A stretch of 63,709 bases of DNA, filler included, from Reclinomonas americana ATCC 50394 (taxonomy: Eukaryota): the NCBI GenBank assembly GCA_048213135.1. It is 10 parts of 10 records of this genome, joined end to end, with 100 filler letters (N's around TTAATTAATTAA, not from the genome) between each part and the next. Parts side by side here need not be neighbours in the genome. Positions count along the whole stretch, not along the records: positions 22,592 to 31,114 come from AFZH01017140.1; 9 more parts are not named here. One strand, given 5' to 3'. The stretch's first letter is position 1; the number at the start of each line of letters is the position of its first letter. The translations under genes were made by a program, and so were the position numbers. Below, in pieces: positions 10,117-61,352 of the stretch. Under the pieces are notes generated by a model that had not been told where the DNA came from, did no database searches, and was given only the letters and a program-made list of their open reading frames with translations.

Positions 10117-12919
10117 TTAGGCAGACACGTAGCGCGTCTTGATGCTGGTCTTGAGTGCGGCAATTGCCTCCTTGACCTCTTGCGACACATCCTTGTCGAC
10201 CTCGATGATGAGGTAGCCGATTTGCTCGGTGGTGGACAGCAATTGGTTGCGCACGTTGTAATCGGCGAGAACTGTGTGTGGTGAGGGATGAGAAGTGGGA
10301 AGGAGTCGAGCACGAACACGCAAAGGCACACACAACTGTTGTTAATGTCACGCAGCACGCCTGTGGCACAAAGCACAATTTTGCAGTCAGCCAGCAAATC
10401 GCTTCACACAAGAATACACACATTTTTTCGATCACGAACCAGGCCTGTTCTCGTGCACGTTGGTGATGCGACGCCATACGTTGCCGAGTGGGATGCTGAG
10501 GATGGGGAAGTTGACGGAGCCCTGCGTTGAGCCCTCATTGACGAAGCGGATCAACGCATCGGCCACCTCCTCGCCAATCTTGCACTGTGCCTCCTCGGTC
10601 GAGCCTGAATGGTGCGAGAGGTGTCAGAGAGTGGTGGGGAAAGAGAGAAAGAGGGAAATTGCGGAAGAGAGACGCACCGCCAATGTGTGGCGTGAGGATG
10701 ACGTTGCTGCGCAGTGCATGGATGGGGTTGAGGAGAGGTCGGGCAATTGCACGAATGCGCGAGCAAGAATGCACGCAACGGGCAACCCTGCAGCGGCGAC
10801 GAGAATGTCAGGCCATTCTCCAGCGGCTCCACGGGGTGCACGTCCACAGCAGCGCCCTCAATGTGGCCAGCCTTCAGCAGCTCGGCCAGTGCCTCGCAGT
10901 CCACCTGCACGCACGTAGAAGAAGTGCGTCGGTTACAACTTTCCGAAACCAACCGACCAAAGGCCACATCACGCGCACGCAACGACAGTACCACGCGCAG
11001 CGTTGAGCAAGAATGAGCCCTTCTTCATCATGGCGAGTCGCTCGGCATTGAGCAGGTTCTCCGTGTCGGCCGTGGCCGGCACGTGCAGGGTCACGAAATC
11101 GGACTCGCGCAGCAGGTCCTCCAGCGAGCCCACACGCTGGGCGTTGCCAATCGCCAGCTTCGGTACCACATCAAAGTAGATCACGCGCATGCCCAGGGCC
11201 TCGGCCAGCACCGACACTTGGGAGCCTGTGGGAGGAAGGGAAAAGGGAGGGATAAGGGGGAAGAGAAGGGGGGAGAGAAGGGGGAAGAGAAGGGAGAAGG
11301 GGGAAGAGAAGGGGGAAGAGAAGGGGGAAGAGAAGGAGGAAGAGAAGGAGGAAGAGAAGGGGGAAGAGAAGGGAGAGTGTGCGAGAGTGCAGGGAAAATG
11401 AGGGAACTCAGTGAGAGTATATCAGAGATTGATGGTATGTGAGAAGATGTGAGCGCACGAGGTAAGCAAGGAGATGATAACGAGGCGAAGAGGCGCAGTG
11501 AAGGGAATGAACAAAGACAGAGACAAGAGAGGGTGCGAGAAACATAGAGAGAGGTCAAGCGAGCAATGCAAGGTGACGACAACGATATAACGAGGGCCAG
11601 AGATGAGAATGGGAAAGAAGAGAGCCAAGTAAGCGGGTGGTAGAAAGAAGGAGGGAACAAGGTAAGCCAGGAGAGGGCTGCAGAGAGATCGAGCAAGAAA
11701 CAGTAAGTGTAAGCGAGAGAGAGAGAGAGAGAAAGAATAAGTGCAAGTGTGTGAGTGAGAGAAAGAGAGAGAGGGCAAGCAAGGGCAAGGGGAGACACTG
11801 AAACAACGTGACGCAGAGAGAGAAGAATTGACAAGAGGGCAGTAACAGGAGAGTCGTTGATGCAACACACCGACATGACCAAAGCCGACAATGCCGAGAG
11901 TCTTGGCGCGCACCTCGTAGCAGGCGGTGGCAACCTTACGCACAAATCGCACAGTGAGGAAAACGACATCACCAAGATCGAGAGAGTTCCGCCCAAACCT
12001 TCTGCCACTCGCCACGGTGCATCTGCTCGCTGCGCATCGACGCTTTCCGCGCCAGCATGATGACCTCGGCAATGATCAACTCGGCCACACTACGCGTGTT
12101 GGCAAACGGCGAGTTGAAGACGGCCACCTGCATCGACACGCTCTTCCATCACCGATTTCTCCGACACCAACCTCACAACAAGAAAAAAAGCACGCACCGC
12201 TCGCCTCTGCGCCTCGTCGAGGTCCACCTGATCCGTGCCGATGCAGAAGCAGCCGACCGCCAGCAGACGGCGACCCGCACGCAGCACCTCGCGAGTGATC
12301 TGCGTCTTGCTCCTGCCCACACACATGAGTTGTCTGCGCGCGCGCGGGAAACATATCAAATCACGGACCGCACTCCGACAATGTGCACATCCTGCACCGC
12401 CTCGATGAGCTCGGCCTCAGTCATGGCCTTCTTCGACACGCGCACCTGTGGACAGAGAAACGAGCGCGCGGGAAACGAGTGAGTACCCCAAAGCGGCATG
12501 GCCATGTCCATGGCAAACCCTTCCACGCACGCACACACTGACAACACAGAGAGAGATAGCAGCAATGTGCACTCATAGAGAAGAAGAGCAGAGAGAGGGC
12601 CACGACGCGGAACATCCCTCAATGCTCAAGCATCGCAGTGCAGCAGTCGCCTCCAGCAAGTCACACGCGTGGCACGTGCAGCAAATGCTCTCTGTCTCAC
12701 TGAGACACACACACACACACACACTGTGTCGCCCTGCACTCCACACGCACGCACCGTGAACCCCTCCGCCTCAAACAACTCAATCGCACGCGGATGCACT
12801 CCATCACACAGCAGCACACGGATCGGATCCGTGGTCCGCGTGAACAGCTGTCCTCGTGAGCTCGACGCGCCCACAGACCCCAAAGGCACCGGTGACAACG
12901 ATCCACTCGCACTCGCCAT
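10117..12919 (-). CDS. PHGDH: D-3-phosphoglycerate dehydrogenase (SerA/Ser3 type with ACT domain)
   Basis: GCFCIGTDQVDL, VFNSPFANTRSVAELIIAE, KTLGIVGFGHVG, SDFVTLHVP, AAVDVHPVEP, NVILTPHIGG and a C-terminal ACT-like region. Confidence 0.95.
11255..11375. repeat. 12-bp tandem repeat GGAAGAGAAGG(G/A) in a purine-rich tract within a 645-nt PHGDH intron (11226-11870)
   Basis: Directly visible repeated GGAAGAGAAGGG/GGAAGAGAAGGA units. Confidence 0.85.
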
Positions 12920-12994
12920 TCCTCGATCAAAGTCAGAAGCACTTTGATCGTCCGACGAATGTACTTCAATTACTCGAGTTCTTTCCTTTGCGCG

Positions 12995-14993
12995 ATGCGG
13001 CTGCTCATCTTGTGCCTCGCGCTTGTGCTTGTCGGCGTGTGCCACGCGCTTCCGACGCAGGTGCACTTGAGTGTGAGTGTGGAGGGTCGCCGCAACGAGT
13101 TGTCGGTGACGTGGTTCCACGACGTGTCGAGTGTGAGCGGCGATGCGGCGGTGGAGTGGGGAGTGGCGTCGGGCGAGTACTCGCAGGTGGCGTCGGCGTG
13201 GAGTGCGACTCCGTATACGCGTGGAGAGCCCAAGTGGACTGGCACGGTCTACAGTGCCACCTTGTCGGGCCTCCAGTGTGATGCAAAGAGCGGAGGCGGA
13301 GTTTCGTGCACACGCGCGCGTGGTCTTTCTCTCTGCATGTGTTGTGCTCATTCCCTCTCTGTCTGTGTGTGTGTAGATGCGCTACTGGTATCGTGTGCGC
13401 ACGGCGGGAGAGTACTCGCCGGAGCACACTTTTGAGACGCCGTTTTGTGGTGACTATGATGTGCAGCCGTTCCACACGTTGTGGTATGGCGACATGGGAA
13501 CGTTGCGTCACTGAGCTTTACGCACGCACATATGCACACACGCGCGCACATCATCTCACACCAGCGATAGTGTGAACCGTTCGCTGGCGTTTGATGACAC
13601 GCACTCGTCGCTGGCCTCCATCACGTGGATCGAGAAGGTGATGAGTGGCAAGGTGCCGGATGAGTCGTTTGAGGTGGTCGTGCACGTGGGAGACATTGGC
13701 TATTGTGTTGCGTGCGGCGAGGGTCTCTGCTTGTCAAAGTGCCTGCCGGTCTCACGCCGTGCGTGTGGTGTGTTGGCACAGGATGATGGTGCGTTGCGGG
13801 CCAACCAGACGACCTTCAATCAGTTCCTGCTGGACGTGGAGAATGTGGCGTCGTCGTACCCGTACATTGTGTCGGAGGGCAACCACGGTGAGCGAGGTGC
13901 CACGCCGCTGCGCGCCCGCACGCACGCGGTACTCACATGTGCTCATCGCAGATTCGCATTACGAGCATGCCATGTACCACGAGGCGTTCCGCATGCCCGA
14001 CTGGAAGTCGAGCAAGAACATGTATTTCGCGGTGGATGTGCCGCACGCGCGCTGGGTGTTCTTCTCGGCCGAGGCCGACTATGCGCCTGAGGTGTCGGAG
14101 CAGTGGCGCTGGCTCCGCGACAACCTGCGCTCGTTCCGCGAGGACAAGGCCAATGATGTTGCGTTGTGATGGGTCGGTCGCCGCCTCTGCCTCCAATCAC
14201 TTTCTCACCCAGTGTGTTGCGCATCGCAGGATAAGTGGCTGATTGTGGGCGTGCACCGCCCGTTCTACTGCGCGTCGACGGTGAGCTGCTGTGGATTGCG
14301 TTTCTCCATCATGCGCGCTTTGCTGCTCATCTCGTGTGTGCGCGCAACCAGTGGTCGTACTGCAACAGCACGGGTATCGAGGCGTTGCGCCTGTCGGTGG
14401 AGGGCCTACTGCAAATGTACAATGTCGACGTGGTGATCGCCGGCCACACGCACGACTACGAGCGCATGTACCCGACGTACCGCAGCAAGGTGGCCGGCAC
14501 ATACGCCAAGCCGGAGGCCCCGGTGCATCTCATTTACGGAGCTCCGGGCGATGTGGAGGGCCAGGAGTGGTCCTACCTGGTCAAGGAGTGGAACGCGTAT
14601 CACAGGTACGGTGACAGCACGTGAGTGCCACAGATGGGTGCGTTGTGGAGATTCATTGGTGGGAGATGCGATGTGCAGCGTGCAGCTGGGGGTCGGCATG
14701 GTGTCGATTTACAACTCCACCAGCATCCACGCCCGCTTTGTCGACACGGTGACGGGAGTGACGGAGGATGGCGTTTGGCGTTGCGTGCTTTGACGAACGC
14801 TCTTGTTTTTTCTTTTTGGCTCACTGATACAACAGTCTCTCGCCGAGAGATCAAGCGAACACCGGAGGGTGTTTTCGTTCCGGCCGAGGCGCCGGGCTAC
14901 GACGCGCATGGAGTGCCGCATGTGGACGCCACCGAGTTGATCTCGATGGTGCAGTCGTCACTGGTGCAGAAGATGCACAACAAAGGCCAGTGA
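12995..14993 (+). CDS. Secreted purple acid phosphatase (ACP7-like), copy 1
   Basis: Signal peptide, FN3-like N-domain (QVHLS..VTW) and the five metal motifs GDMG, GDIGY, GNHD, VGVHRP and GHTHDYER. Confidence 0.93.
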
Positions 14994-15155
14994 AGCTGAG
15001 TGGCCCCCGATTGATTCCAGATTCGGTGCGATCCAATACCGGTCCTCTTTCGTATTTCTTTCTTGCTTGCTTGGAGAGAGGAGAGAGAGAGAACAGATCA
15101 CTTCCCCCCACACTCACACACTCTTTGCCTCAAACACTTCTTTTCTTGCCTCATC

Positions 15156-17404
15156 ATGGTCCGCACCATTCCTTTCGTGATGCTCTTTATCGTCGCGGTG
15201 GCAGCATCCACTGCTGCAGCGTTGCCGCCCGGCCAACTTCACCTCGCCCTGACTGGCCAGCCGAATGAGGTGTCAGTGACGTGGTTCCACGACGCCAGCG
15301 ATCCCACCGAGGATGCAGCGGTGCAGTGGGGCGAAGCGTCGGGCGAGTACACGCAGTTGGTGGCCGCGGCCTCAGCCACACCGTACTCGGGCAAGTGGTC
15401 GGGCACTGTCTACAGTGCACTCATGAGCGGCCTGCGGTGTGCGCCTGCCGGAGAGGGTGGAGTTGCGTCTTGCATGGAAGGAAAAGAGGGAGAGAGAGTT
15501 GTGTTCGACAACTGCAGCAGTCTGAATCTGGGTCGTCTTCTTTCTCCTTGTGAGATTCTTTGCTTCTTCTTTTGCAGAAGAGAGTTGATTGGCATAGAGA
15601 TGCACTGTGCAATGGAGTTAGCAGCGTGGGGCGACGAGCTCGAAGTGCGATTCGCCAATCGTGCAGTGTCAGTCTAAAATTGATTGTCTGCATGTTCGGA
15701 AACTTTTTAGCTGCTGCTGCATTGTCGCAGTGAGGGGTACCAAGGCAGAGACAATGAGAGAGAGTGTGTGTGTGAATTGGTGTGCTGTGCGTCCCCGCAT
15801 CTCTCGTCTGACGGAAACCATTTCCCCCCTCGCGCAACAGGTGCGGTACTGGTACCGAGTGCGTACGGCGGGAGAATATTCGGTGGAGCGAACCTTCGAA
15901 GCTCCCCTGTGCCACGACTACACGAAGCAGCCGTTCCGCTCACTGTGGTACGGCGACATGGGAACGTTACGTCTTTGTATGTCGACTGCCTGGGCAACTC
16001 CGACTGCTGCTCATCATCCATGTACAGTATCAATCGAGCGCTGCCGGCCGACGACCAACACTCTGCGTTGGCGACTGTGTCGTGGATCGAGTCGGTGATG
16101 CAGGGCAAGGTGCCGGGCGAGTCGTTTGAGATGGTGATGCATGTGGGCGACATTAGCTACTGCGTTGCGTACTGCTGCACTTGTTGTCTCTCCCCGCTTG
16201 CGTCGGGCTCACCGATGGGCACGACAGGATGAGGGCGACAGCAAGTACAACCAGACCATCTTCAGTCAGTTCATGGTGGACATGGAGAATGTGGCATCGT
16301 CGTACCCGTATCTGGTGTCGGAGGGCAACCACGGTGCGTGCTGCTGCTGCTGCACGTCTGTCAAGTCCGTTTCCTGATTTTGCCGTGCCCAATAGACTCC
16401 TTCCACAAGCACGCCATCTTTGGCGAGGCCTTCCGCATGCCGTCGTGGTCGACCACCAAGAATCTCTACTACAGTGTGGATGTGCCGTTCGGGCGGTGGG
16501 TTTTCCTCACGGCCGAGGAGGATTACACGCCGGAGGCGTCGGATCAGTGGAAGTGGTTGCGCACTGAGCTGCGCACATTCCGCGAAGACCAGGCCAACGA
16601 TGTTGCGCGATGACAGCCTGCTGCTGCTGCGCAGAGTAATGTGCCTGCTCACTCACTCTCCATGTGCAGGACAAGTGGTTGATTGTGGCCATTCATCGCC
16701 CACTCTACTGCTCGTCATCTGTTGCGCATTACCGTGCCGCGTTAACGCAGCATCATATTGTCGGCCTCTCACGCAAGTTGTCTGCAGAGCTCGTACTGCA
16801 ACAGCACCTCGAACGAGTCGGTGCGAGTGTCGCTGGAGGGCCTGCTTCAAATGTACAATGTGGACGTGGTGGTCTCCGGCCACACGCACGACTATGAGCG
16901 CACAAAGCCCGTGTACCGCGGCAAGGTGGCCGGCACGTACGCTCAGCCGGAGGGCCCCGTGCATTTGGTGTACGGCTCTGCCGGCGGCGTGGAGGGGCTC
17001 GTCAAGCAGCAGAGCAGTGTCGAGTGGGACGGGTTCCACAGGTGAGAAACTGATGACGACCATGATGAGATCGGCACAGTTGTGCTGATGTGTGTTGTCG
17101 CGCAGCATCGAGCTCGGCGTCGGCATGGTGTCAGTGTACAATTCGACGAGTATCAACGCTCGCTTCTTCAACACGGTGACGGGCCGTGTCGACGACGACG
17201 CGTGGAGTTGCGTCTGTGGTGCACGCTCGGATTTAGTCGCGAGTTTTTACTTACGGTCATTCGTTGCACCTGCCTGCAGTCTCGCGGAGAGCCATCAGCA
17301 GAACTGCTGAGGGAGTGTTTGTGCCGGTGCCGGCACCAGGGTATGACGAAAAGGGACGGCCAATCGTCGACAGGGAGCTGAGTGAGCGCATGGCCAGGTG
17401 GTGA
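15156..17404 (+). CDS. Secreted purple acid phosphatase (ACP7-like), copy 2 (tandem paralog)
   Basis: Same motifs (GDMG, GDISY, GNHD, VAIHRP, GHTHDYER) and the same intron positions as copy 1; stop TGA 17402-17404. Confidence 0.93.
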
Positions 17405-18125
17405 ATGTTAGAGGCGAAGGAGGATGCGCTGCGCAGCAGTGAAGCGGTGGTTGTACAGTTTTGTTTACTTGGGTAAGAGCGTTGTGGAGAAGGGATCGCA
17501 GAAGGCATGAGTGGTGACAATGACGGCATGTCATGGTTTGGTCAGTGGTGTTCGACCTCGCTGCTGCGATGCAGATTGCATACTGCTGTCGAAGCTCCGA
17601 GACCGACGACGCCTCCTCTTCTTTGCTTGCTTCACGGCTCCGGACCCGGCTTGCTTTGGCCTTTCCCCAGATTGGATGTGCCGAGTACGACTGCAGAAAC
17701 GCAGCGTTGCGCATGCGTCTGTGCAAATGCGTCAAATATGTTCAGCCTCGAGAAAGCCTTCCAGCCAATGCCCAAGAGTGGTGTTCGTGTTACTCATCAA
17801 GACAGCTGTTGCAGTTGCAGTTGCATTTGATTTGATTGTTGGTGAATGAACTGCTGTTGCTGCAAGCGCAGAAGCCGCGGTCCGGCGCCGGTGATTTGCA
17901 GGCAGCAATGGGTACGTTGCCTGACAACGCAAAAATGCCAGCTGGGTCAAAAGTCAAGGAGTTCGAAGGGTATACCACATCGAACAGGATCTTGGAAGAT
18001 TTGCCCAATTCCACCTCCGCCACTGNNNNNNNNNNNNNNNNNNNNNNNNNNNNNNNNNNNNNNNNNNNNTTAATTAATTAANNNNNNNNNNNNNNNNNNN
18101 NNNNNNNNNNNNNNNNNNNNNNNNN

Positions 18126-21100
18126 CCATTCTCTTCCGGTTGGTGGACGAGCTCGCCGCTCAAGCGGCCTCTCGCGCCATGGCCAACACCGTGTACGACA
18201 CGCTGCTGGCCGCCTTCCTGGACAATGTGCACAACAGCCGAGTGCGATCGTTCTGCCTCGGTCACTTTTGGAACACGCTCAAGGCGTCGTCGGTGCTGCC
18301 ACTGGCCAGCCTTGTCGATCCGCTCATGCGTGAGTATGCCTCGCTGGCCGTGTCGGAAACCGACGTGGCGTTTGTTGCCCGACTGGTTGGGCACGATCGT
18401 TTGAGTTGCGTTTGTGTCGTCTTGCAGTTTTGTCACGTGCGTGCCTGACTCGTGTCGTCGTCGTCGCCACAGGCCTGGACTCCGCCATGACCATCTTGCG
18501 TTTCCTGTTTTCTGTGATTACGGGCAAGGCCGAAGCCGACGACGCCACCGTGGCCACCGCCATGCCGGCCCTGCTCAAGAGCATCCAGGCCAACTGGCAG
18601 CAGCAGCAGTGCATTGTGGTGGTCGACTACGCTGTGCGCGACGCCGGCACGCTGTACGTGTCGGCACTCAACTCGCCACAATGGTCCTCACCGGTGGCGA
18701 CGCCAACCACCAGCAAGCGCACTTTGAAGCTGCTGGCGGCACTCGCCGATCTCGAGATTGTTTCGTACTTACTCTCTCTCACACCTCTCGCTCTCGTCTC
18801 GTGTTCCTGACTGCGGCTCGCACCTTGCAGCGCGCCATCACGGACCTCCTCGTCCCCGTGGTGCGCACCATTCTGCACGGCATCCCGCAACCGGAGCCCG
18901 CCCTGTTCAATCTGGCGTCGCGTCTCAACGTGTCGCCCCGGAGTGTCGCCGGACCGATGTCGTCCAATGGTGGCACATTGGTACGTGCCGCGGATCATCA
19001 TTTCATGTTATTTAGCGTCTTGCTGAGTTTCTGCTGCTGCTGCTGCTGCGCAGGAGTCGCCCATGAGCGACGGTGTCGTGTTGGATGCGCCGCCGCCTGC
19101 GCGCAAGTCCACCTCGCCACGACGCGGGCGCTCACATCCGACCGGCGTCGGCGACACCGACACCTCGTCAGCCTCGCCGCGTCGGCGCAATCTCGGTCAG
19201 AGTCGGCTGCCACATCCGGGTCGCAAGAGCGACGGCGGCGTCGTGCAGCAGACGCAGGGGGAGGAGAGTGGCAGTGTGAGTCCGCTGCATCGGAAGCCTG
19301 CGTCCGACTCGAGCGTTCATGACATCGAGAGGCCGCGCAAGGTGTGTGTGCTGTCGACCAATTGTTTTCTCTGGTGTCGTTTCACTGACCTTGCGCGCAA
19401 CAGCTGTACCACGCACCGCCGGCGCAGATTCACGAGCGCGAACGTGCCATGATGGATCACATTCTGGAGCAGCGGCGGAAGCGGGCCGAAGACCGTGCAC
19501 AGGCCGAGGAAGAGAGACGGCTGCGCGAGGAGCGCATCAAGAAACAATTGGATCGGCTGCGAAAAAAACAGCAGCTGGCGTTGCATCCTATGGTTCGTTC
19601 GCCGTCCTCTTGTCCCTCAACAGTGTGTGCGCTCATGAACCCTCGTTGAATGCAGGAGGCTGGCGGAGAGGAACAGGCGCAGTTACCGGCACATGAGCGC
19701 CTGTACAAACGTGCCATGCTGCAACGCGACAAACTCCATGGCAAGAAGGGCGGTCAGGTGTGCCTTCGATCCTCTTCTGTGCTTGTGTGCCGTGTTGTCG
19801 TGGCCTGATTTGTTGAATTGCTTGCGTCAAGGCATCGAGTGGCGACGAGGAGGCAGAGGCTGCGAGTGGTGATGACGAGGAGCGGGGAGCGCCCAACGAA
19901 AGCTTCGAGCAGTCGGGTGACGAGGGAGAGGCGGATGAGGCCGCTGACGAGGAGGAGGAGGAGGAGACGGAGGACGAATCGGCCGATTATGTCGCCGAGA
20001 GTGTGCTCTCCTCCATCTTGCAAGACGTCACTGGCGACGACGATCACTGGGAGTTCCCGGCGCAGCGTCGTCACCGAGAGCAAGCTGAGCGGCGGCTCCA
20101 GGCGCGAGAAGAGCGCAAGCGACAGCGCCATCGCAGCAAGTCGCCGCCTGTGCCAAGCGAGAAGAAGAAGGCCACCAAGGCGAAGCGCAAGAGCAAGGGT
20201 GGCGCTTCCGGCTCGACCGAGAACACGCCCACCAAGACGGTAACGTCGCACGCGCGCGCTCGCTCGCGTGTGTGTATGCGATGTGTGTTTGGAGCTGACT
20301 GAAGAGAGTGCGAACAGGAACCCGCGGCACCCCGTGTCGCTGCGAGAATCAAGCAGCTGTCGGTGTCACCCGGCTTCTTCCAGAAGCACCGCGAGCACTC
20401 GCGCGGCAATGTCATGTTTATCCTGAGTCTCCTGACTGATGTGGTCGACAGTGTCGTCAGCGGCGAGTTGCGTCTCCGCACACCCATATTTCCTTGCGTC
20501 TCTTTTTCCTCCTCTCCCCCTCACTTTGACAAATGCGTCTGCAGAGCGCGTGCACGACTCGGCGAGAAGAAGAAGAAGCCAAAGAGGAAGGACAAGGAGT
20601 TGTCGACGAAGCGCCCGCCAGATATTGCACCGGTGCTGGACACCAAGTCGAAGATTCCAGAGAGCGAAAGCGCAATTATCGCGCACCGGAAGCGTCTGGA
20701 GGAGGAGCGTGAGCAGGAGGAAAAACGCCGTCAGAAGGAGGAGAAGAAGCGCGAACAGCAACGCGAGCAGCGCAAGAAGGAACTCGAGTCCATGCTGCAG
20801 GAGCAGCGACAGCGCAAGGAGGAGGTTGGCTTGTGTGTCCCCCAGCCTGTCGCCGCCACACGCACTCACTCTCTCTGTCTCTCGCACAGGAGGCCAAATC
20901 GGCGGAGGAACGTCGCAAGCAGCTGGAGCAGGCCCGTAAGAGCAAGGAGGAGAAGCGGCAGCAGGAGCTGGTGGCGTGGCGCGAGGCCGAGAAACAGCGC
21001 ATCCAGTCGCACAAGGAACAGACGGAGGAGAAGAAGCGGCAGGAGGCGGAGGAGGCCAAGAAGAAAGTTGCGCGCACGTGTGAGGCACAAGAGAGACAAT

Positions 21101-21780
21101 AAGCGATGCTGACGCGTGTGCTGCTGTTGCGTAGGCGCAAGAAGACACTCGTCGTCGCGAGGAGGAGAAGAAGCAGCGTGAGGCCGCCAAGGCGCAACTC
21201 GAGGAGTACCAGCGTCGCAAGACTGAAGAACGCAAGCAGGAGGAGGAGCGCAAGCGGCAGGAAGACGAAAAGCGGGCGGTGGCTGAGCGTAAGCAACGCG
21301 CGCGACAGATCAAGGTGTGTGGCTCTCGCTTCGAAGAATATCATGCGTGTGTACTCACATCACAGCCTTCTCATCACGCAGAAAAAGCAGAAAATACAAG
21401 CAGCCAAGGCAGCCTCTGCCGCCAACGGTGGCGGTGCTGGTGGCGCTGCGCCTGGGGACGACGGTGACGACGATGACGACGACGATGATGATGATGCGGC
21501 TGGTGGTGCCGACGATATTGACGATGGTCTGGCAGCTGCTGCTGCAGCAGCGGCCGCCGCGGCCGCGTCAAGTCACGCTCAACCGCACCAGCACGAGAGG
21601 AAACCGTCGTCGGACTTGAGGACGGAGGGGAAGTCGCACCAGGAAACAGGTGAGGCGATGGAAGGGGAAGGCGAAGGGGAAGGCAGAGGGGAAGGGAAGG
21701 GAAGGGGAAGGAGAAATGGAGGTAGGAAAGAGAGGGGGTCAGGGAGAAAAGGGGGAGCGGCGAGAGGAAGGCAGTGAACA
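18126..21780 (+). CDS. Large hypothetical protein: helical N-part plus long Glu/Lys/Arg-rich coiled coil; 5'-partial, 3' end uncertain
   Basis: Chain of ORFs linked by GT-AG introns; long E/K/R/Q coiled-coil stretches; no family recognised. Confidence 0.55.
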
Positions 21781-22440
21781 TGGGAAGTGAGGCGAAAGAG
21801 GACAAGGAGAAATGAAACGGTGGTGGAGAGAGAGAGAGAGAAGAGAGAAACGGTAAGTTGAAGGGGAATGGGAAGAGAAAGGGACACCGCACGGGGAAGG
21901 GCGATAAGAAAGAAACCATGGAAAGGTAGCGAGTGAGAGAGAATGGAGAGAGAGAATCAGTGATTGGAGAAAATGAGAAAGTAGAGGGAGATGATTCGGG
22001 GAGAGTGGAAAGTGGGTGGTAAGAATAACAAGGGGATTTGTGGTTGGAGAGATAGAAGAGGAAGAGGATGAAAATCAAGGGAGGCAGGAGAGCGAAGTGG
22101 CGAGGAAGTGAGAGCGGAGAGGTGAGATTTAGTGGAGAGAATGAGAAAGTGAGAAGAGAAGTGTGCACGGGGATGTTGGTGAGGAAGAGAAACAGGGAAG
22201 AGAAGGTTTTGAGAAAGGAGACATGGAGTGAGAAAGGAGAAATGGAGTGGTGGCTGAAGAGGTAGTGAAAGGGGAAGAGAATGGAAGAATAACAGGAGAG
22301 AGAGAAAGAGAGAGAGCAAGTGAGAAGTGTGCACGGGGAAGTTGGTGAGGAAGGAGACATGGGAGATAGAGAGAGAGAGAGAGAAGAGAGAGAGCTATGA
22401 GTGGAGAAGAAGAGAGTGTGTGTGAGAGGCAGAAGAGAGA
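21650..22440. repeat. Purine-rich (GA) low-complexity tract, probably intronic
   Basis: Begins at a CAG|GTGAGG donor near 21650; almost all A/G, with GAGA runs and an internal imperfect duplication (GAGAAGTGTGCACGGGGA near 22157 and 22322). Confidence 0.8.
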
Positions 22441-22591
22441 TCAACCGTTTGCAGACTAGTGGAAAGGTTCCTCGTCACTCATGTGCATTTCNNNNNNNNN
22501 NNNNNNNNNNNNNNNNNNNNNNNNNNNNNNNNNNNTTAATTAATTAANNNNNNNNNNNNNNNNNNNNNNNNNNNNNNNNNNNNNNNNNNNN

Positions 22592-23055: not shown

Positions 23056-26000
23056 TTACAAGTTCGCAAATTGCGTCGGGATAATCTTCTTGCGATTTCT
23101 CGTGTTGTGACTTGAAGGAGATAGTGCGGTAAGAAGCGCACTGTCACGCCTAGCGACAGGCGAGGACGCCGGCCCGGGTTCGCGATCCGTCATGCCCGGG
23201 TAGTGTACTCGGTACAGCATGGACGTACGACGGCTGGCGATAATTGATGTTCTTCTAATCTGCGTACTCGGAGCGCTGCTGTCGTCAATCAAGCCACCCT
23301 GCACGACGAGCCGCGACAGCGTCTTGTTGATGCCACAATCCAAGTCGGCATCCAGCATGTTGAAGACGATGCGCTTGCTACCAAGAGACGGTGGACCGTC
23401 ATGTTCAGTTGACCGTTGTGGCGAGTTGTCCCCGGCGCTATGATCGCCACCACCAGCACCACCGTGGAACGGCTCGTCGCGGCATACAACGTCACTGAAA
23501 GTCACACCAACATGAGCCGAGTCACGGTCCGGATCCGTTGTGTCCAACGTGACCTTCCGTGCACCGGCGGCGGTGCCACCGTCGCCGTACACAGCAGAAG
23601 CACGCCGATGGCCGAAGCGGGGAGTAGTGGACGAATGGCTCGCAGAGTTTCTCGGGCTCTGCACGCCGGCTATGTGTACCGTGAGCGGCACAGAGGAGCG
23701 TCGAGTGTGCACAGATCCAGAGCCTTCGGACGGGCTCTTGTGCACGGTGCTGTGGTGGTGGTGGTGGGCCAAAAACTCCTCCCGTTGCAATTCTTCATAG
23801 TCGCCGACGCAGGTGAGCATGTTCCAGCCTTCCAGCAGGCGCTCCTGGAGTACTTCAGGGAGGATTTGATAGACTGCGACAAACAATGAAATGATAAGTA
23901 GAGTGGCAATGAGATCGGAGTAGGCAGCAGCGCAGAGAACTCACTGTGCATCACTTCCGCAACGCCCTTGAGGGACATGGGCCCGGCATAGTTGACGACC
24001 ACTGGTATTTCTAGAGCCAGGGTTTTGTTTGGATTCTGAGGCACAGCAGCGAGATACGGTGTGATGAGAAGTGGGTGGACGAGAGAAGCAATTCATCGCC
24101 ACGACGACGTAACTCGGGGAAGTTGACTGAGGAACTCATCTGAGACGTGCAACATGCCGCCCTTGGCTGTCCCGGCTACTCGCGCACCGCGATTAACGAC
24201 TGTTCCGTAGTAGTCGAGGCGCCCCATGACTTCGTCGATCTTCCAAGAGAGCGCAGCGAGTGAGAGTGAAACATCACTGAGAGAATGCAAGTGCATGTAA
24301 TTGTTAAGACTTAACCTTGTGCATCACTTCGCCAAAGTGAAGACCCATGCGGACACTGCGGCGTGACAACATGAGTGAGAGTACAGGGAAGAGAGATTGG
24401 CGGCGACCACACAGACCGGAGACCGCGGTAAATTACTCCGTATTTTGGTGTTTCCACAATGTCGCCTGCGATGCAAAGTGAGGAAAACTTTCCCATGGAG
24501 TTAACCCTGCTGTTGTCGGTGATGCGCAACTATATCTGAGTTTGTAGAGAGCTCGTGGCCACGGTGCCTGTTGACGTACGCGCAGCGTATACGAGTGAGC
24601 AGATAATAACCAACACACTTCTCCATCTCCTCCTTTTGCGTCCACTTCCAGTATGCACATGTACAAGCTCCTTCTTCCTTCTTCTTCATCTCTTCTATTT
24701 CTTCTTGTTTCTTCATCATCGTCATCTACTCCTCCTCCTCCTCCGTCACTGTCTTTCTCCGTTGCTGTTTCTTCCTCTCTCATCCTTGATAGAGATACCT
24801 TGACTAGCGCGAGTTGCACTTCGAGAGCCCAGTGAATGGCATCTAAGGGACTTGCGAACGAGACCATGAAGGCGTCACCTACACATGACACACCATCAGT
24901 ATAAAAGCTTCTGTTTTCTGTTTCACGAAGAGTAATGAAAGGAAGAAATATTGCCAGTCACAAGTACCCTAAGTAAAGATAAAGTCATGTTGTGACAGGG
25001 AAACTAAGAACGCGACAAGAGTTGTCAGCGATCACTGACTACACGCACAAAACCGAGAGAGAACTTGCATTGATCAGCTGACTCTATGCATATTTGTGCA
25101 ATGGCACGTTGTGTCCAGCAGAGATCGCAAACATGCTACCGTATCAATCATACCTTGATAATCAGCTTGACTACAGTGCGTTCACAACTCTCTACTTCTG
25201 GCATACGTAGGGTGATCACACTGCAACCAATGCGATAAACACAAGTCTATTCCACAAAAACGGCTTCTTGATGCTTCTTACGGTACCTTCTTTCTCGTTC
25301 ACACACCTTCCGTCTTGACTTCAAATCCATTAAACTCGCGCAGGCATCGACGAACAATGCGATGGTGCATCTCAATGCAGAACAGCATGAGCTCCGTGTC
25401 GGTCTCCCACAGTGCAGTGGAACCTGTGGGCTCAGGTTAGTTGGCAACGAGGAGGGAAACTCGAAAGTGATAAGTTCTGTAGCTGCTGCTGACACTTGAT
25501 GGCTCTCACTCACACTGTAATATGTAGCGAGCATTCTATGTGTGAGACGAGTGGCATTGAGAAACACCGCAAACCTTCGATATCCTATGTGTTGACAAAG
25601 AGATGCATATGTGCACGCGGGATCAGGAGTTGTACAGTGAGTAACGCAGGGCAATCAAAACACGAACATGTACACATTGTGCACGCAGCAGGCCTTACCG
25701 TGAATCCCACAGTAATCTGCAGCCAATGCAGTGAGTTGAGCATCACATCAAATCAAACAACCTTGCCCTCGTTTCCCCAACGAACCGCTCCTTTCGGTGC
25801 CTTGTCCAGCTGCATGTAGTACTCGCCTTCAGTGTCCTTTCCATAAACTTGAACCTCGTGCTCCTCATCTCGGAGAGTTTTGCGCGAGTACAAGAAGCGC
25901 AAGCCAAACAGGAACATCGTGCAGTTCACATACGTCCATCCAACGACTAGCAGGGCGGCAAAAATCTGGATACCCACCTGAGCCCCACGATTGCCAGGAG

Positions 26001-28926
26001 CAACGCCAAACACTGCGAAGCACGAGAACGATGACAAAGGTTTGCACGACGCCCGAAACCAATCGTAATTTAAACCTGCAGTAACGCGCGCATCGGAGTA
26101 GCAGAGGCCAGCGGCGGTTACACCCCACAAGCCTGCCCATCCGTGCACTGCCACAGCGTCCACGGGATCTGCAGACACACAAGTACATGTAAGTGTCAGA
26201 CATGTACGTTGTCAAGACCACCAAGATCTAGAGTGGTGTACAGTACCATCGACGTGCATCTTGCGAGTGAGCCACTGCCGTCGGACGAGAAAGAGAGAGA
26301 GCTGCATTAGGAAACATCGAAAGAATGATCGCAGGGGAGATCAACTACAAAAAGACTAACCGAGCCACCCAGGTACACGAAAGCCGCAACAGTGCCAATG
26401 AGTGCTGCCATGTGTGGCTCAACAAACGCGCAGCCTGCATTGACGGCGAGGAGGACACCATAAGCTCCCTCCCTCACTCTTGCCGCATGCCGTACACGGT
26501 TGAATACATGATCACGCAACATGGAGTGACGGCTACAAGACCTCCGAGGCTTGCATTCATCATGATTCCAATGTCATAGCGTCCACGCAAAAGTCTGTGC
26601 ATACAACGACACTTGCAATGAGTATGAAAGAATTCTCAGAAGTGGAAACAGTTGCGCTCAACGCCCTGCGCTCTCTCTGTCAGGTTCCGTAAAGTGCAAC
26701 TGATCATGAAGCGTTGACGATCGAGCGCTTAAAGACTGAGCTGGTAACTGATCGCAGTCTATTCTTGTTTGCTTGTCGCAGCACGTGATGAGCATATCAC
26801 CAACCTTGGCATGAAGACACCCACAAAGGTGGCAGCCGAGCCCGCGATCATGGTGTTCACTGCAGCCAACGAAGCGATGGTGGACTGTGTTTCCCCCGGC
26901 GCAATGGTCACCGTGGATCCCGCATTAAACCCCTGCGACGAGGATAGTAAACGCCACTGTCACCGCAGGCGTACGATTTGCACTCCCGGTTGAGGAGGAT
27001 CAACACATACCAGCCAACCGAACCACAGAAGGAAGCAGCCGAGCACCAGGTGGATCTGCTGCGTTTTGGTCCACTGTGCCCGCACAAGCTCAAGAGTAGA
27101 GTCGGTCTGCGGTGGTGTGCGTGTGAAAACAAGGAGTGAGTAAACGTGCGCAAAACCTCGCGATTGCCAATGTTCACAAACCGCTCCACCAATGTCCAAG
27201 GCTACGTTTTCCATCGCAAGCGGCGCATCCGCGCCTTCATTGTATGTGTCTCCCGTGCGTTCAACAGGAGCGACAACAGGCATTTCAAATGTAACGCCGG
27301 GTCGCGGACCGACCGTCTGGGCATCGATAAGAATAGTATGCAATTTAGTTTCTCAGAGAACAGAAGCAAGCAACCGGCAAGGGAATCACCTTGGCGCCAA
27401 TCAGCGCTGCCACACCACCGACCAGGTGCACAGGGCACCCGCCCGCAAAATCGAGAACAAAGTAGCCGCCAAGTGGTCGTGAAGAGGCGGGTGCCGATCT
27501 GTGAGATTCGCAGTCAGTACACTCACGATATTCGTGCTGCTGCTCCCACTCACCCGCTCAACCAGCCGTCTACACGCACGGTCACAAACAAGCAAGCAGC
27601 GTGTGAGAGTTGCGGCATGGAGGAAACCCACGAATTACTTCTGTCATGTGTAACGCACCTCGCGACCACAGCCAGTGCGCCACAGCCGAATAGATCCACA
27701 GGCACACGTAGAAATGGAAAGAGAGGTATGTCTGCACGACCTGTGAGCAAGCAGTCGAGACACAAAAATGGACTGCAGACGTAACTGAAAACTTTGTTCG
27801 CTCCTAAAACGGGGAAAACAGTTTTGCGAAATAAGAACAAACAACACCCCCTCCCCTACCCACACACACTTTCTCAGTCACGCAACTGCCATGGCGCCAG
27901 AGACAATTGTGCCCTGCGCGCACACGTACAGACACAAAGGGACGAGTGAGATGGTCTGGCGCAGGTATCGTTAGAACAGTTGTAGTCTGCTCGGAACTGC
28001 GGTAGCGGAAAAGTGAAAGCCGTAGAGCCACACCACCGCGTCAGTCTTGCTCGTCGGTATCTGAAACACATGACGAATGTCATAGCCCAAAAACCCGTTG
28101 CCACCTGAACAGCTATTTAAGGAAAGCAGTACAGACTGTATGTAATAAAATCTCAATGCACGCAACTCGAGTATGCAAACGCATAGCCGGCCAGCCACCA
28201 GGCGACCAATGTTACACAGCCATTCACGTAGTTCTTGAGCACAATCAAGTGCACTCCGCGTCGAGCGCACGCAGCCTGTGCGTGTCAGATTGAGCGTGTG
28301 TGTGTTCGAAACGGCAAACTCTGCCTGTGCTGCGCATCGTGTGATCGCCAAACTCTGCACAGCCCACGTATTTTCTCTGTCGTTCTCTTGCTCGAGTCTC
28401 ACCTCAAGCAACAGAAAGCCGGTTTGCATGAGAAACACCAAGGCTCCCGCGAAAAACACCCACTGCATGTTCACGCACTCTCATGAGACACACACACACT
28501 GCGCATGCACGCGCAGACACACACAGTGCACAGCGCAAGCGTTCTTCACGCACTGTCGTGTTGATTGACGTGATCAGTCCCTCGATGGTGGCCTCCGCTG
28601 AGAGAGCAGCAGCGGAAGAGGACGTGAGTGAAGGAGGTTCGCGCATAAGCACACACACGCACAAAATTGAACGGCGAAAAAGGGAGATCTTGTTGGGACA
28701 CACACAGGTGGAGAGTCGTCGTTGTAGGTTTTACACGCGCACCTGTGCTTGATCGCGGAAGGAAGGCGGACTGTTGTGCGGCGACTGGCCATGCATATGG
28801 AGACAACAAGTACGAACAGGTGAACACAGCGAAGATCGCGAATGAGATAGAGAGAGTCTTACCTCGATGAATGCTGCATAGGAGGAACACTGTCAGAGGG
28901 ACAAGCGTCCTTGTGACGAGCGACAT
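23056..28926 (-). CDS. Ammonium transporter (Amt/Mep) fused to a class III adenylate cyclase
   Basis: Amt: VFLMQTGFLLLE, WWLAGYAFAY, TIVSGAMAERTKF, YSAVAHWLW, LDFAGGCPVH, LLWFGWLGFNAGS, DDPVDAVAVHG. In-frame linker APKGA leads to the cyclase: ITVGFTDIEGSTALWE, EVKTEGDAFMVSF, GLRVRMGLH, GRLDYYGTVVNRGARVAG, SLKGV, VYQILP. Confidence 0.88.
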
Positions 28927-28987
28927 GCCTGCGCGCAGTGTGCGCTACTTAAAGAAGAATGAAATTTCAATAGTTGTTGGTACACGC

Positions 28988-29161
28988 ATGGAAGATGAGA
29001 GTGTGGGCGAGTCTGCTGCAGCTGGAGTGAGTGGGAAGCGTGCGCGGGATGCCTCTGAGGATGATACGGGTGAAGACGAGCCGCCACAGAAACGACAACG
29101 CACTGGTGCGTGTGTGACACAGTCGAGGCACGACCACAATCATCTCTCTCACTCCTCTCTG

Positions 29162-29210
<49 letters not shown>

Positions 29211-31114
29211 CTTGTTTTGTGATTGGGGTGTGTTCGTCGCACATAACAGGATCATCAGACGAGTTGTCAACAAGTGGTTCGCCAACTCTCATCTCCGCTC
29301 TTCTCCCGTTGTCGAACAACACTCACGCTGTGACGTTGTTGTCGTGTGTGGTGTCGACAGAGCTGTTCAAGGAGCGCTCAAACCTCCGTCTTGAGAACGC
29401 CATCCCACGCGACGTCATTGATCGTTATGTAAATCATGTCAACACTCTTTGCGTGCACGCTGCACACACGGCGCTCACGGTCACTCTCTGCTGTGTCGTA
29501 GATCACGTGGCAGGCTGGATTCCCAACGATTCGGGTCTCTCCCCCGATGGTAATGCTAACCTTGCACAAGCTGGAATTGTGCTCAGCAGAGCCGACTTCC
29601 CCGCTGATGGTCAGTGGCAGATCGATGCATGTCCTGAGTTGCAGGCGATCAAGAGCGCATTCGAGAACAGGTAAGCAAGAATCGCTCTCAGGTGGTTTCG
29701 ATTCTACACGCGCAGTGACTGACTGTTGGATGTGTTGCAGTGCCGGTACTGATGCGGTGTACCGCCAGCGATGGTGAGTTGATTCCATCGACTCGTTGCT
29801 CTCGAGTGTGGCGCGCTGATGGTGGAATGTGCTGGGTAGTGCGGCGGCAATGCAGCTGCTACCTGGTGCTCCGAATGCAATGCCAGCACCGGCGGCAGGA
29901 CCAGCTGTCGCCGACGAGCAACGTGCTTTGCTACCTGGTGCGCCGAATGCAATGCCAGCACCGGCGGCAGGACCAGCTGTCGCCGACGAGCAACGTGATT
30001 CGTGGGAGCAGAATATGGAGAGCGTGCTCCCATACCAGGAGTTCCGCTCTTGGTGTCCGTCGGCGCTGTTCCAGCGCTTGCCCAGGGTGGCTGGGTTAGC
30101 TGAAATGCCTCTTCAAGTGCTAACGACAGCAGCTGTGCTGAATTTATGTTTGGTGAGTGCTTCGTTGATTAGCAGTTGCAACACGTCTCGCTCTTGTCAA
30201 TCACGGTGCATCTTGGTGCGCAGCATGCGAACGAATCTGTCCAAGTGCTGGGCAATGCAAAACTCCCTTGGTTGTACGGCCTCACGGCTCCAAGACCGGA
30301 CCTGCAAATCCGTCGGCTTGACCCAGAGAACTCTGTTCTCATCGGCGAGATCAAGGCCAAATCCACAAACGAACAACAGCAACACACGGACAAGTTCAAG
30401 CTTCTCTTGCAGATGGCGTACGCACTGTGGGCGCGATCGAAGCGCGTGCGGAACGACGAAGAGCTGCGCCAGCAGCGTGTTTATGGCTGGCTGCAGTTCG
30501 GCGCAACTGTACAGTTGCTGCAGATGCGAGCTGTACCTGTCGAAGCAACTGTTGGTGGAAAGCAGCAGAAGGTGTGTTTTGCATCCGTGTTGTTTTCAAG
30601 GTGGTGCATAGCGGTGTGCTGATTTGCTGATTTGCAGACGACACTGTTCGTGTATCATCTCGTTGATGAAAGCAGCTTGGCTCCACTCCTTCCGTGGACC
30701 GTGGTGCGATTTGTTCTCCTGGCATTGCATGAAATATCACGACAATTAGGCGGTCCCGCACCACAATGGCGACCCGCCCCGGCACTTGAAGAGCTGGTTC
30801 GAAATCAGTCCAAGATGACGCCGGTATTGTGGATGTGCCCCTTTGTTTCATCATCGCTATTGATGTAATCGACGCTGATAGTCTGTCGATCTCTTGCAGT
30901 CTGAGAAAAATAGACAAGGTGCAGCTGGTGGCACGACGACTGTCGCTGCTGATCAACCACCCACTGCGGCTGCTGGATCGGGAGGGCCGGGCGTCTCCGA
31001 GTCTGCTGTCATGGTCAAGACAGTGCAGGTGGACTTCTCAAGAGCGCGCCTCGTGCACGGAAAACCCATTGAGGTGGCAGTGCTTGAGGTGAGCGCGCAC
31101 GAGAGAGAGAGAGA
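28988..31114 (+). CDS. Hypothetical protein with NLS-like N-terminus and PD-(D/E)xK nuclease-like motif; 3'-partial
   Basis: N-terminal KRAR..PPQKRQR; RPDLQI..VLIGEIKAK followed by helix ..QMAYAL and VYGWLQFG; multi-exon. Confidence 0.5.
29857..29997 (+). repeat. Near-perfect 72-bp tandem duplication (24-aa unit LPGAPNAMPAPAAGPAVADEQR)
   Basis: Two copies start at 29857 and 29929, with one mismatch in the aligned part. Confidence 0.95.
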
Positions 31115-31214
31115 NNNNNNNNNNNNNNNNNNNNNNNNNNNNNNNNNNNNNNNNNNNNTTAATTAATTAANNNNNNNNNNNNNNNNNNNNNNNNNNNNNN
31201 NNNNNNNNNNNNNN

Positions 31215-38204: not shown

Positions 38205-38499
38205 CTTGCTCCGAACACACGTGAATGGAAGTGAGTCCTGCCGCTTTTGTGAAGTGTATGCGTGTACATTGTTTTGTTGTCGTTGTTGCTGTTGTTTTGT
38301 GGAGCACATCCTACTACATGTACCCCCCATCGTTGTTGCGGCTGCGTGCGTGCCTCAGCCGCGCTGCTTACTCGTCCTTGGGCTCGCCGTCCTCGTCGAN
38401 NNNNNNNNNNNNNNNNNNNNNNNNNNNNNNNNNNNNNNNNNNNTTAATTAATTAANNNNNNNNNNNNNNNNNNNNNNNNNNNNNNNNNNNNNNNNNNNN

Positions 38500-43900: not shown

Positions 43901-45131
43901 CGCAGCAACTCGCGGGTGTCGATCAGATGCTGGCGCACTTGCAGGTTGGACTCCACTTGGTGGAACTGCTCGACTTCCTCCAGCGCACGAATGAGCTCCT
44001 GAATCTTGCGGCCAGCCAGCGTGGAGTCGTCAAAGTCCAGCTCCGTAATCTTTTGTGCAATGTCCTGGAACCACTTCATCAGCTGCTCGTCCTTGTTCTT
44101 GGCCGACAGCACCTTTTCGCCACCGTAGTAGTCCGCTGTGCGTGGCATGTTAGTACATGTCGAGTGATGGGCGGTGTGGTGGCAAGACGACACAAGTCAA
44201 CGCACCCAGCTCCGACATCTTGGACGAGGCCGCCGAACGGTTGGCCGTCCACTTGTCGACCTTCTCGTCGAGCAGCTTCTGGAACATTTCACGCAACAGG
44301 AACTCGAACTGCGACACGTTCAGCAGCAGCACGAGGATCTCCTGCGGACCGGGGCCACCCAACACGATCTCGGCAATCTTCTTCTTCTCGCAAATGCGGT
44401 GCATGATGATCCAGCGGAGGGTGACGTTGCAGTTGCGCAGGCAGTTCAACATGCGGCTGATGTTGTCGAGCACAAAGTCCTCCACCAACACGCCCTCCGT
44501 GAGGTAGTGAGCGACCTCCTCTCGCAGCGAGACCATGCGGTCCCAGTGTGACACGGCTGGTGCACAAAATGAGACACACACAGAGAGAAAGAAGAAGAAA
44601 CATCATGCCAGGGGACACACACCAAGTTCGCGAATCTGCAGCGGCTGCACAATGTTGTTCAACGCATCCGAGGCGGCCTTGTAGCCGGCCCAAGCAGTGG
44701 TCAGATCGACCGTGTAGCCCATCCAGAAGGAGATGACCCAATTGTCGGGGAAATGCTTGTCGACAATTTCACGCATGACAGCCTGCATCATGAGAGACGA
44801 GTCAGGAACTCGTTCGCGCCAACACACAGGTGAGAAGGGGTGGGTGAGACGCAACTCCCTCGCGACTCAAAATGTGCGGAGCGAAGTACAGCAAAATGTA
44901 CAGCATGGCGGCCTGGGTGGCGAGCGCCACTGAGCGGTGGTGTGGGCTCGGGTAGTACGACGTCTGCTGGTACAAGTCGTCACTTCGCAGACGACCAATG
45001 AGCATCACAATCAGCTCCTGCTTGACGGTGTAGCGGCCGAAATACTCCTCGGGGTAGTTCGTCGGCACCTTCTTGCCGGGTTCGTAGCCCGAGTGACGCC
45101 ACAGCTTGAACACGGCATCGGCGTTGTCGAC
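40973..45131 (-). CDS. WASHC5: Strumpellin (WASH complex subunit 5), 5'-partial
   Basis: [82 protein letters not shown]. Confidence 0.96.
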
Positions 45132-45276
45132 CTGTGATTGATGAGTGAAGAATGGATGAGCCAGCCAGCCAGTGCGNNNNNNNNNNNNNNNNNNNNNNNN
45201 NNNNNNNNNNNNNNNNNNNNTTAATTAATTAANNNNNNNNNNNNNNNNNNNNNNNNNNNNNNNNNNNNNNNNNNNN

Positions 45277-61269: not shown

Positions 61270-61270
<1 letters not shown>

Positions 61271-61350: not shown

Positions 61351-61352
<2 letters not shown>

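Follow-up and report, generated by a model that had tools for sequence, protein, structure and literature searches.

In bacteria, ammonium transporters of the Amt family have been repurposed as receptors through the fusion of an enzyme, and two such proteins are the closest described systems to the gene presented here. Sd-Amt1 of Shewanella denitrificans is an ammonium receptor with an Amt-HAMP-GGDEF arrangement, in which the Amt is trimeric but the transducer it drives works as a dimer, a break of symmetry; its authors consider that, of the three domains, two may be paired dynamically (PMC11152129). Ks-Amt5 of Kuenenia stuttgartiensis combines an Amt with a histidine kinase that ammonium regulates in the absence of HAMP; the coupling probably proceeds via the C-terminal linker together with loop 5 of the adjacent subunit, and contacts between the C-terminal region (CTR) and loops govern the activity of plant Amts (PMC5764959). 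Among eukaryotic Amts, fungal Mep2 and plant AMT1 have been linked to signalling and possess a C-terminal region that acts allosterically (PMC11152129, PMC5764959). The gene in question, a candidate fusion of an Amt module with a class III adenylate cyclase, is located on the minus strand at positions 28926-23056 of a stretch of DNA from Reclinomonas americana ATCC 50394 (assembly GCA_048213135.1), in the part derived from AFZH01017140.1. The whole stretch, 63,709 nucleotides in ten joined parts, is hereafter the window. An earlier note on this DNA had proposed the fusion and had pointed to prokaryotic Amts joined to histidine kinases or diguanylate cyclases, of which Ks-Amt5 (PMC5764959) and Sd-Amt1 (PMC11152129) are published cases.

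The predicted protein resembles Sd-Amt1 in its C-terminal nucleotide-cyclising transducer, in the predicted placement of a dimer under a trimeric sensor, and in the retention of the pore motifs. Sd-Amt1 differs in being bacterial, in its cyclic di-GMP output from a GGDEF domain, where a class III cyclase and cyclic AMP (cAMP) are predicted here, in a HAMP linker that is ~60 residues long, where the present join takes ~10, and in carrying the N1/N2 signature. A direct fusion to the transducer without HAMP is shared with Ks-Amt5, which is unlike the present protein in its bacterial host, its histidine kinase output and its N1/N2 two-ion site. With Mep2 and AMT1 the protein has a recognisable CTR in common, whereas these transporters are without a fused enzyme and signal via separate partners. 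On the enzyme side, the trypanosomal cyclases GRESAG4.1 and GRESAG4.3 (PDB 1fx2 and 1fx4) present the same STALW...EVKT and DYYG..N..AR motifs and the same homodimer type, with all catalytic residues in each chain. GRESAG4 proteins carry one transmembrane helix and an extracellular binding-protein-like domain. The likeness to them is limited to the catalytic domain, as an Amt module stands upstream of the cyclase here. Among protists and early-diverging fungi, chimeras that join a polytopic membrane module to a class III cyclase are represented by the rhodopsin-guanylyl cyclase of Blastocladiella (PMC9730499) and the P4-ATPase-guanylate cyclase of alveolates (PMC13466520), with another membrane module and presumed signal. 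What is new relative to the bacterial receptors is that the host and the type of cyclase are eukaryotic and that the join has no adaptor.

Among the papers listed by full-text literature searches, no eukaryotic Amt-class III cyclase fusion was found to be described, in agreement with the earlier note, which knew of no characterised example; bare annotations, as in InterPro or in Fig. 7B of PMC11152129, may list it. The available portions of PMC9928731, PMC9730499, PMC4620153 and PMC4053784 mention no Amt-class III cyclase protein, and the one available supplementary file of PMC11152129 contains neither “cyclase” nor “eukary”. The Acanthamoeba genome paper (PMC4053784), in its available portion, deals with a cyclase of another architecture and says nothing of ammonium.

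The gene model comprises 27 exons and, as built from the coordinates, a coding sequence (CDS) of 2922 nt for ~973 amino acids (aa) followed by TAA. Exon ends were set by reading the DNA for AG and GT sites that keep the frame open. All 26 introns are GT-AG, measure 54-428 nt and have consistent phases, and the sole stop is the terminal TAA at 23058-23056. Without splicing, the minus strand of the interval breaks up into many short open pieces over all three frames, with no one open reading frame (ORF). The ends given in the earlier note, 23056..28926, coincide with the proposed ATG (28926) and this TAA, and the motifs it had quoted (pore histidines, AHWLW, WFGWLGFNAGS, the junction chain and the cyclase residues) were all recovered from the minus strand, where splicing brings them into one consistent frame. 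The GC content is 0.563 in the CDS, with 0.625 at third codon positions (GC3), and 0.488 in the introns, and this difference in composition supports the exon/intron partition; in the window, GC ranges about 0.49-0.60. If retained, 17 of the 26 introns would bring a stop into the continuing frame, and the open chain is therefore not trivial. The donor hexamer GTTGCG is present at four introns and GTTACG at two.

A first model contained 26 exons and 1000 aa. Two refinements followed a length comparison with a full-length Amt homologue, P0010 (Willaertia magna KAL9654703.1, 613 aa): a 54-nt GT-AG intron at 27785-27732 was introduced, and a later acceptor was taken for the exon ending ..HVD|D, which now starts at 26274. 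Residue numbers refer to the refined 973-aa model unless marked as first-model numbering. Four splice choices are neutral for the frame, namely the 54-nt segment, a 99-nt segment at 27205-27107, a 231-nt segment at 24798-24568, and 27 nt at the alternative acceptor. For the first three, the unspliced reading was dropped, given their intron-like GC3 (0.50, 0.42 and 0.32, respectively) and the length of the homologue. For the last choice, the acceptor at 26276-75 was preferred to that at 26303-02 because it removes a 9-residue excess relative to three Amt homologues and leaves a CT-rich tract intronic. Six exons do not exceed 28 nt (10, 16, 18, 18, 27 and 28 nt), and a standard gene finder would probably miss such microexons, splitting or truncating the gene.

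The exons, all on the minus strand, are as follows (TM, transmembrane segment; P0004 and P0002 are two further proteins used in the alignments).
X1, 28863..28926, minus: tentative; ATG and hydrophobic, signal-peptide-like N-terminus; first ATG, donor GTAAGA.
X2, 28554..28597, minus: tentative; short N-terminal stretch, extracellular, that includes an NTT site; AG/GT, phase 1 to 0, pyrimidine-rich acceptor (0.85).
X3, 28403..28477, minus: Amt TM1 (..MQWVFFAG..LMQTGF..); raw ORF piece matches PF00909 positions 2-35, E 0.021; aligns with P0010.
X4, 28167..28275, minus: Amt TM1-TM2; PF00909 positions 29-57, E 0.023; BLAST match to P0010.
X5, 27998..28104, minus: Amt loop and TM3; splice phases fit; aligns with P0010; no Pfam match of its own.
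X6, 27887..27913, minus: 27-nt exon, GTIVSGAMA; AG/GT, phase 0; aligns with TIVSGA of P0010.
X7, 27786..27803, minus: 18-nt exon, ERTKFS; set off by the in-frame 54-nt GT-AG intron, which corresponds to an 18-residue gap against P0010 and is optional, the frame staying open if it is retained.
X8, 27659..27731, minus: Amt TM with AHWLW (recruitment-site Trp); placed by alignment to the homologue and the splice model.
X9, 27554..27569, minus: 16-nt microexon, DGWLS; AG / GTGAGT, phase 1 to 2; matches the GFLS region of P0010.
X10, 27390..27498, minus: first pore histidine, H202, in DFAGGCPVH; PF00909 positions 146-168, E 1.9e-4.
X11, 27206..27316, minus: VGPRPG loop; aligns with LGPRPG of P0010; followed by the 99-nt intron, in frame and optional.
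X12, 27011..27106, minus: ends ..LLWFGWL; PF00909 positions 188-205, E 0.017.
X13, 26805..26932, minus: GFNAGS (Phe gate, Ser) and the next TM; PF00909 positions 206-241, E 0.0058.
X14, 26521..26594, minus: Amt TM8 region; PF00909 positions 246-267, E 0.028.
X15, 26361..26434, minus: Amt TM9 region; aligns with P0010, P0004 and P0002; no Pfam match of its own.
X16, 26247..26274, minus: 28-nt exon ending ..HVD|D, with the preferred acceptor.
X17, 25786..26168, minus: carries H393, the second of the pore histidines, then TM10-11, the C-terminal region of the Amt and, where the cyclase starts, APKGA; PF00909 positions 304-387, 26.8 bits.
X18, 25699..25716, minus: 18-nt microexon, ITVGFT; CAG| ... 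|GTAAGG.
X19, 25575..25584, minus: 10-nt microexon, DIEG, with the first metal-binding Asp, D519; TAG| ... |GTTTGC.
X20, 25307..25423, minus: STALWE...EVKTEG, with the substrate-specifying Lys, K558; PDB matches to GRESAG4.3 and GRESAG4.1.
X21, 24799..24878, minus: GDAFMVSF..., with the second metal-binding Asp, D562; raw ORF piece matches PF00211 positions 52-96, E 0.063.
X22, 24531..24567, minus: APWPRALYKL, cyclase insertion region; AG/GT, phase 0 to 1; preceded by the 231-nt segment, in frame and intron-looking.
X23, 24417..24465, minus: ...IYRGL; AG / GTCTGT, phase 1 to 2.
X24, 24316..24355, minus: RVRMGLHFGEV strand; AG / GTTAAG, phase 2 to 0; motif in the expected order.
X25, 24114..24239, minus: LDYYG..VNRGAR, with D638, N645 and R649; PF00211 positions 118-155, E 4e-4.
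X26, 23945..24035, minus: end of the cyclase domain, ..SLKGVAEVMH; AG / GTGAGT; no Pfam match of its own.
X27, 23056..23873, minus: last cyclase strand YQILP, a tail of ~270 aa and TAA; no Pfam family.

The Amt/Mep-type module spans aa ~37-477. Among the raw ORF pieces, PF00909 was matched in three of eight (best E 2.6e-7), and six of the eleven Amt-region exon translations matched it colinearly over positions 29-387 of its 399, with ~105 bits summed; X17 is the only one to exceed the cut-off of 23.2 alone. The best full-length Amt relative is P0010 (PF00909 3.8e-104), to which the spliced model aligned over aa 38-561 (first-model numbering) with E 4e-62 and 30% identity. P0010 itself has a 155-aa N-terminal extension ahead of its Amt domain, a short tail after it, and no cyclase. 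H202 and H393 (DPVDAVAVH) align with the corresponding histidines of P0010, P0004 and P0002, and AHWLW (166-170) and WFGWLGFNAGS, with its Trp, two Phe and Ser, align with the same motifs in P0010 and P0004. These Trp, Phe and Ser positions are presumably equivalent to W148, F215 and S219 of E. coli AmtB. Furthermore, the acidic CTR that follows the last helix (..LRDEEHE..G.D..GEYY) lines up with that of stand-alone Amts.

In the cyclase half, the best solved matches to X20 were T. brucei GRESAG4.3 (E 0.001) and GRESAG4.1 (E 0.0016), over residues 23-59 in the PDB search, which bears out the resemblance to fungal/trypanosomatid-type cyclases suggested earlier; no Pfam family was matched by this exon alone. 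K558, in EVKT, aligns with the EVKT of GRESAG4. X25 matched PF00211 at positions 118-155 with 20.5 bits against a cut-off of 21.9, and its D638, N645 and R649 align with the D/N/R of GRESAG4.3 and GRESAG4.1, of Rv1264 and of a RhGC-type nucleotide cyclase (E 0.15-0.66). The PF00211 pieces are colinear, each below threshold. X21 showed a weak PDB match to residues 59-82 of the cyclase Ma1120 (E 0.77), with malate dehydrogenase scoring equally; there D562 aligns with the D of DGFMV. D519 is identified by the FTDIEG motif alone, in a microexon. By motif and alignment, six class III catalytic positions are thus kept, D519, D562, K558, D638, N645 and R649, to which we assign metal binding (D519/D562), ATP recognition (K558/D638) and transition-state stabilisation (N645/R649), in line with the class III literature. 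ATP is predicted as the substrate from the Lys/Asp pair, and the presence of all six residues in one chain suggests an enzyme of the homodimer type. We therefore refer to this half as a putative trypanosomatid/fungal-type class III adenylate cyclase.

The two halves meet at the end of X17. The Amt/CTR exon ends ..APKGA at a donor GTTCGT in phase 0 and is joined to the acceptor CAG of X18, giving the chain ...APKGA | ITVGFT | DIEG | STALWE with matching phases across exons 26168-25786, 25716-25699, 25584-25575 and 25423-25307. Unless both microexons are spliced in, the cyclase is without its first metal-binding Asp. The cyclase begins ~10 residues past the CTR and at most ~35 residues past the last helix, with no HAMP, PAS or coiled-coil spacer between CTR and cyclase and no room for one. 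As a control for chance, the 362 nt between the Amt/linker and STALWE exons were scanned for a one- or two-microexon path that is in phase and encodes F[TS]D[ILV][EKV][GSND]. Such a path was found in the real sequence, together with a variant whose donor lies 9 nt further, and in 0 of 300 shuffles. A 19-nt form of X19 (donor 25565) was rejected, as it places three extra residues in FTDIEG-STALW and the similarity to P0001, described below, stops right after the G.

P0001, the best match to X17, is a protein of 159 aa from an unrelated public contig of 925 bp. In one open frame it contains Amt TM10-11 (weak PF00909, E 0.0029), a CTR with ..TLRD.., the APKG linker, and then ..AFTDVEG, with CIAFT in the place of ITVGFT, so that an FTDVEG stands where this gene has FTDIEG. 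In a small local database it aligned to the spliced model through both microexons with E 4.6e-19, and the CTR/APKG linker is kept although overall identity is only ~30%. The similarity ends right after ..DVEG, where this gene has a phase 1 intron; from the protein, we infer that the intron position may be common to both. An arrangement found in ammonium receptors (AmRs), an Amt fused C-terminally to a cytoplasmic transducer enzyme, is thus seen in the model and at the P0001 junction.

The earlier note had the halves joined in frame with no stop. This holds only once the introns are spliced out; retention of the intron that follows APKGA puts a stop after 10 codons and would yield a stand-alone Amt. 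The same intron contains an in-frame ATG nine codons upstream of the ITVGFT exon, and these two features could indicate adjacent genes or alternative transcripts, one for a stand-alone Amt and one for a soluble cyclase starting from that ATG. We consider this improbable, since the stop and the ATG are ~10 nt apart, leaving no space for a promoter or untranslated regions, the donor GTTCGT and the acceptor CAG join in phase 0, the junction lies within one uninterrupted ORF in P0001, and the linker is conserved. The canonical splice chain, the non-random microexon path and the P0001 junction uphold instead the proposed Amt and adenylate-type cyclase architecture. A real Amt-cyclase fusion gene is in our view highly probable, that is, a single spliced gene for a predicted membrane protein of ~970 aa with the Amt first and the adenylate-type class III cyclase after it.

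It could also be argued that the exon chain is over-fitted, or that the locus is a non-functional relic whose pseudogene frame is rescued by the choice of splice sites. The many tiny exons, the four in-frame choices guided by homologue lengths and the strong divergence of the sequence would suit such an explanation. Against it, every catalytic and pore residue is intact, stops would enter from 17 of the 26 introns, exons and introns differ in composition, and the shuffle control returned none in 300, so that we regard it as very improbable.

Relatives of the fusion proved scarce. An exhaustive phmmer search with X17, the only exon with matches in this library, returned six matches in 1.84 billion representative proteins, with P0001 at the top (E 9.8e-8). 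Word-indexed protein searches gave 1358 candidates for the Amt/linker exon, none at E<=0.001, 201 for P0001, none confirmed, and 10 for X25, none at E<=1. Among metagenome contigs, 85 pattern matches (alignment A1) and 183 (P0001) were collected, and none was confirmed by tblastn. With X17, the ESM Atlas yielded ordinary Amt clusters only, and the PDB no match at E<=0.01. The family appears to be rare and very divergent, with one other fragment among the 1.84 billion representative proteins. The lack of an annotated orthologue among the results may be explained by gene finders overlooking exons this small.

With the fusion gene as its basis, the reading that we favour is an ammonium-controlled adenylate cyclase, in which the Amt CTR would control cAMP; the sequence makes this function plausible, and we assign the full statement a probability of roughly 0.55. 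The Amt module would form a membrane trimer whose cyclases lie in the cytoplasm. As ammonium binds or passes, the CTR, the known allosteric switch of proteins of the AMT1/Mep2/Ks-Amt5 type, would move, and this movement would alter the pairing of two attached cyclase domains, within or between trimers, and thereby change cAMP synthesis. The module may be a transceptor, which still transports, or a receptor, which only binds.

The tail that follows the cyclase (aa ~703-973; 23059-23871, minus strand) is disordered-looking, contains a run of five histidines and matched no Pfam family. It carries five RRx[S/T] sites, at aa 759, 791, 908, 916 and 943, a number reached by only 1 of 5000 tail shuffles. 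Phosphorylation at these sites may serve for feedback or priming, with a basophilic kinase, for example cAMP-dependent protein kinase (PKA), as the candidate enzyme; in the mechanism above, PKA or another basophilic kinase would use them for feedback.

Several observations weigh against an ammonium-controlled cyclase. The AmR signature QX6EX15NX2D[F/T]X54-60TX2[S/T] (PMC11152129) found no match in the spliced model when searched as a regular expression. The nearest arrangement is Q54-X6-E61-X14-N76-X2-N79-G80, with T-X2-S 54 residues on, which has a spacing of 14 instead of 15 and N-G in place of D-[F/T]; the outcome for this N1/N2 signature depends on the splice choice between X3 and X4. If the protein senses ammonium, it may thus be a transporting transceptor or use another site. 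Moreover, three cyclase domains per trimer cannot all pair. The exon chain is predicted from genomic DNA, and its two N-terminal exons (ATG 28926; 28597-28554) are tentative and without homology support. Pfam and PDB evidence is exon-wise, from 16 exon translations scanned one by one: five of the eleven Amt-region exons and three of the four cyclase-region exons scanned had no Pfam match alone, and no cyclase exon reached the gathering score. No full-length orthologue was found in the protein and metagenome searches, and only P0001 among the six weak X17 matches carries the junction. The stop and the ATG within the intron after APKGA also belong here.

A real fusion would also be compatible with an Amt that serves only as an anchor or oligomerisation scaffold, or as a transporter whose surroundings are adjusted locally by cAMP, without ammonium controlling the cyclase. 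The enzyme would then answer to phosphorylation of the tail, to pH or bicarbonate, or to clustering. Class III cyclases commonly carry polytopic membrane domains whose ligand is unknown, and the mismatch to the N1/N2 signature and the long tail with its five RRx[S/T] sites point in the same direction. On the other hand, the pore, the gate residues and the allosteric switch of the CTR are all kept, which would be unexpected in a mere anchor, and the linker is conserved in P0001 despite the low overall identity. Amts with fused domains also exist outside the signature cluster, with other activation sites possible (PMC11152129). On balance, we consider this explanation rather unlikely.

Taken together, the ammonium-controlled reading can be put in a stricter form, to which we give somewhat less than even odds: the protein would be the first eukaryotic one-component ammonium receptor cyclase, with the CTR wired to the cyclase without an adaptor and with occupancy setting cAMP directly. 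As the three cyclases of a trimer cannot all pair, signalling would then need a rotating pair or a clustering that brings trimers into contact. A feedback loop through PKA would be completed by the RRx[S/T]-rich tail.

Upstream of the gene, a possible divergent ORF is located at 28871-29674 (plus strand), without a Pfam family and with a plausible start (M..EDESVG) at 28988. The distance of only 62 nt between this start and the proposed ATG bears on the reality of X1. On the other side, between the 3' end of the gene and the next coding region in the window, a CT/GA low-complexity tract of ~1.1 kb (~21370-22480) includes long S/L/P-rich minus-strand ORFs, and 20001-22000 shows an AT skew of 0.36 and a GC skew of 0.21. 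Nine blocks of 44 N, 12 bases and 44 N (792 N in total) mark the part joins, one of them ~460 nt 3' of the stop.
N blocks: 3219-3318, 18026-18125, 22492-22591, 31115-31214, 38400-38499, 45177-45276, 49855-49954, 57534-57633, 61063-61162.

An ORF scan of the window gave Pfam matches in 17 of 83 ORFs, including Pex2/12, WD40, purple acid phosphatases, SNase, MOSC, strumpellin and dynein heavy chain. The N-terminal domain of purple acid phosphatases (PF16656) was matched at 12896-13432 and 15015-15674, both on the plus strand (E 1.2e-6 and 1.9e-9), which may represent a tandem pair. Exons of strumpellin, of the WASH complex, were found at 41938-44196 on the minus strand (PF10266, up to 2.7e-35), and those of a dynein heavy chain at 59686-63513 on the same strand (DHC_N1 3.4e-37; MT stalk 1.1e-34); both are ordinary housekeeping genes. 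A strumpellin exon compared with the ESM Atlas matched only unrelated “Goodbye”-domain clusters (0.90, low recognition). Rfam and tRNA scans of the window returned nothing. The genes across the window are those of an ordinary free-living-type eukaryote; given strumpellin, Pex2/12 and the purple acid phosphatases, and introns of 54-428 nt, an apicomplexan origin was set aside.

Ammonium sensing in eukaryotes is a long-standing open question. To our knowledge, no direct physical partner has yet been identified that links the Mep2/AMT1 transceptors to cAMP and PKA, and an Amt CTR switch within ~10 residues of an adenylate cyclase would make the coupling of ammonium to cAMP directly testable. If the ammonium-controlled reading is true, it would provide a second, independent case of the symmetry problem posed by a trimeric sensor and a dimeric enzyme, and the protein might be useful as a compact biosensor module that converts ammonium into cAMP. 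The bacterial “ammonium receptor” principle, in which an Amt is combined with a kinase or a diguanylate cyclase, would then reach eukaryotes and a cAMP output as well.

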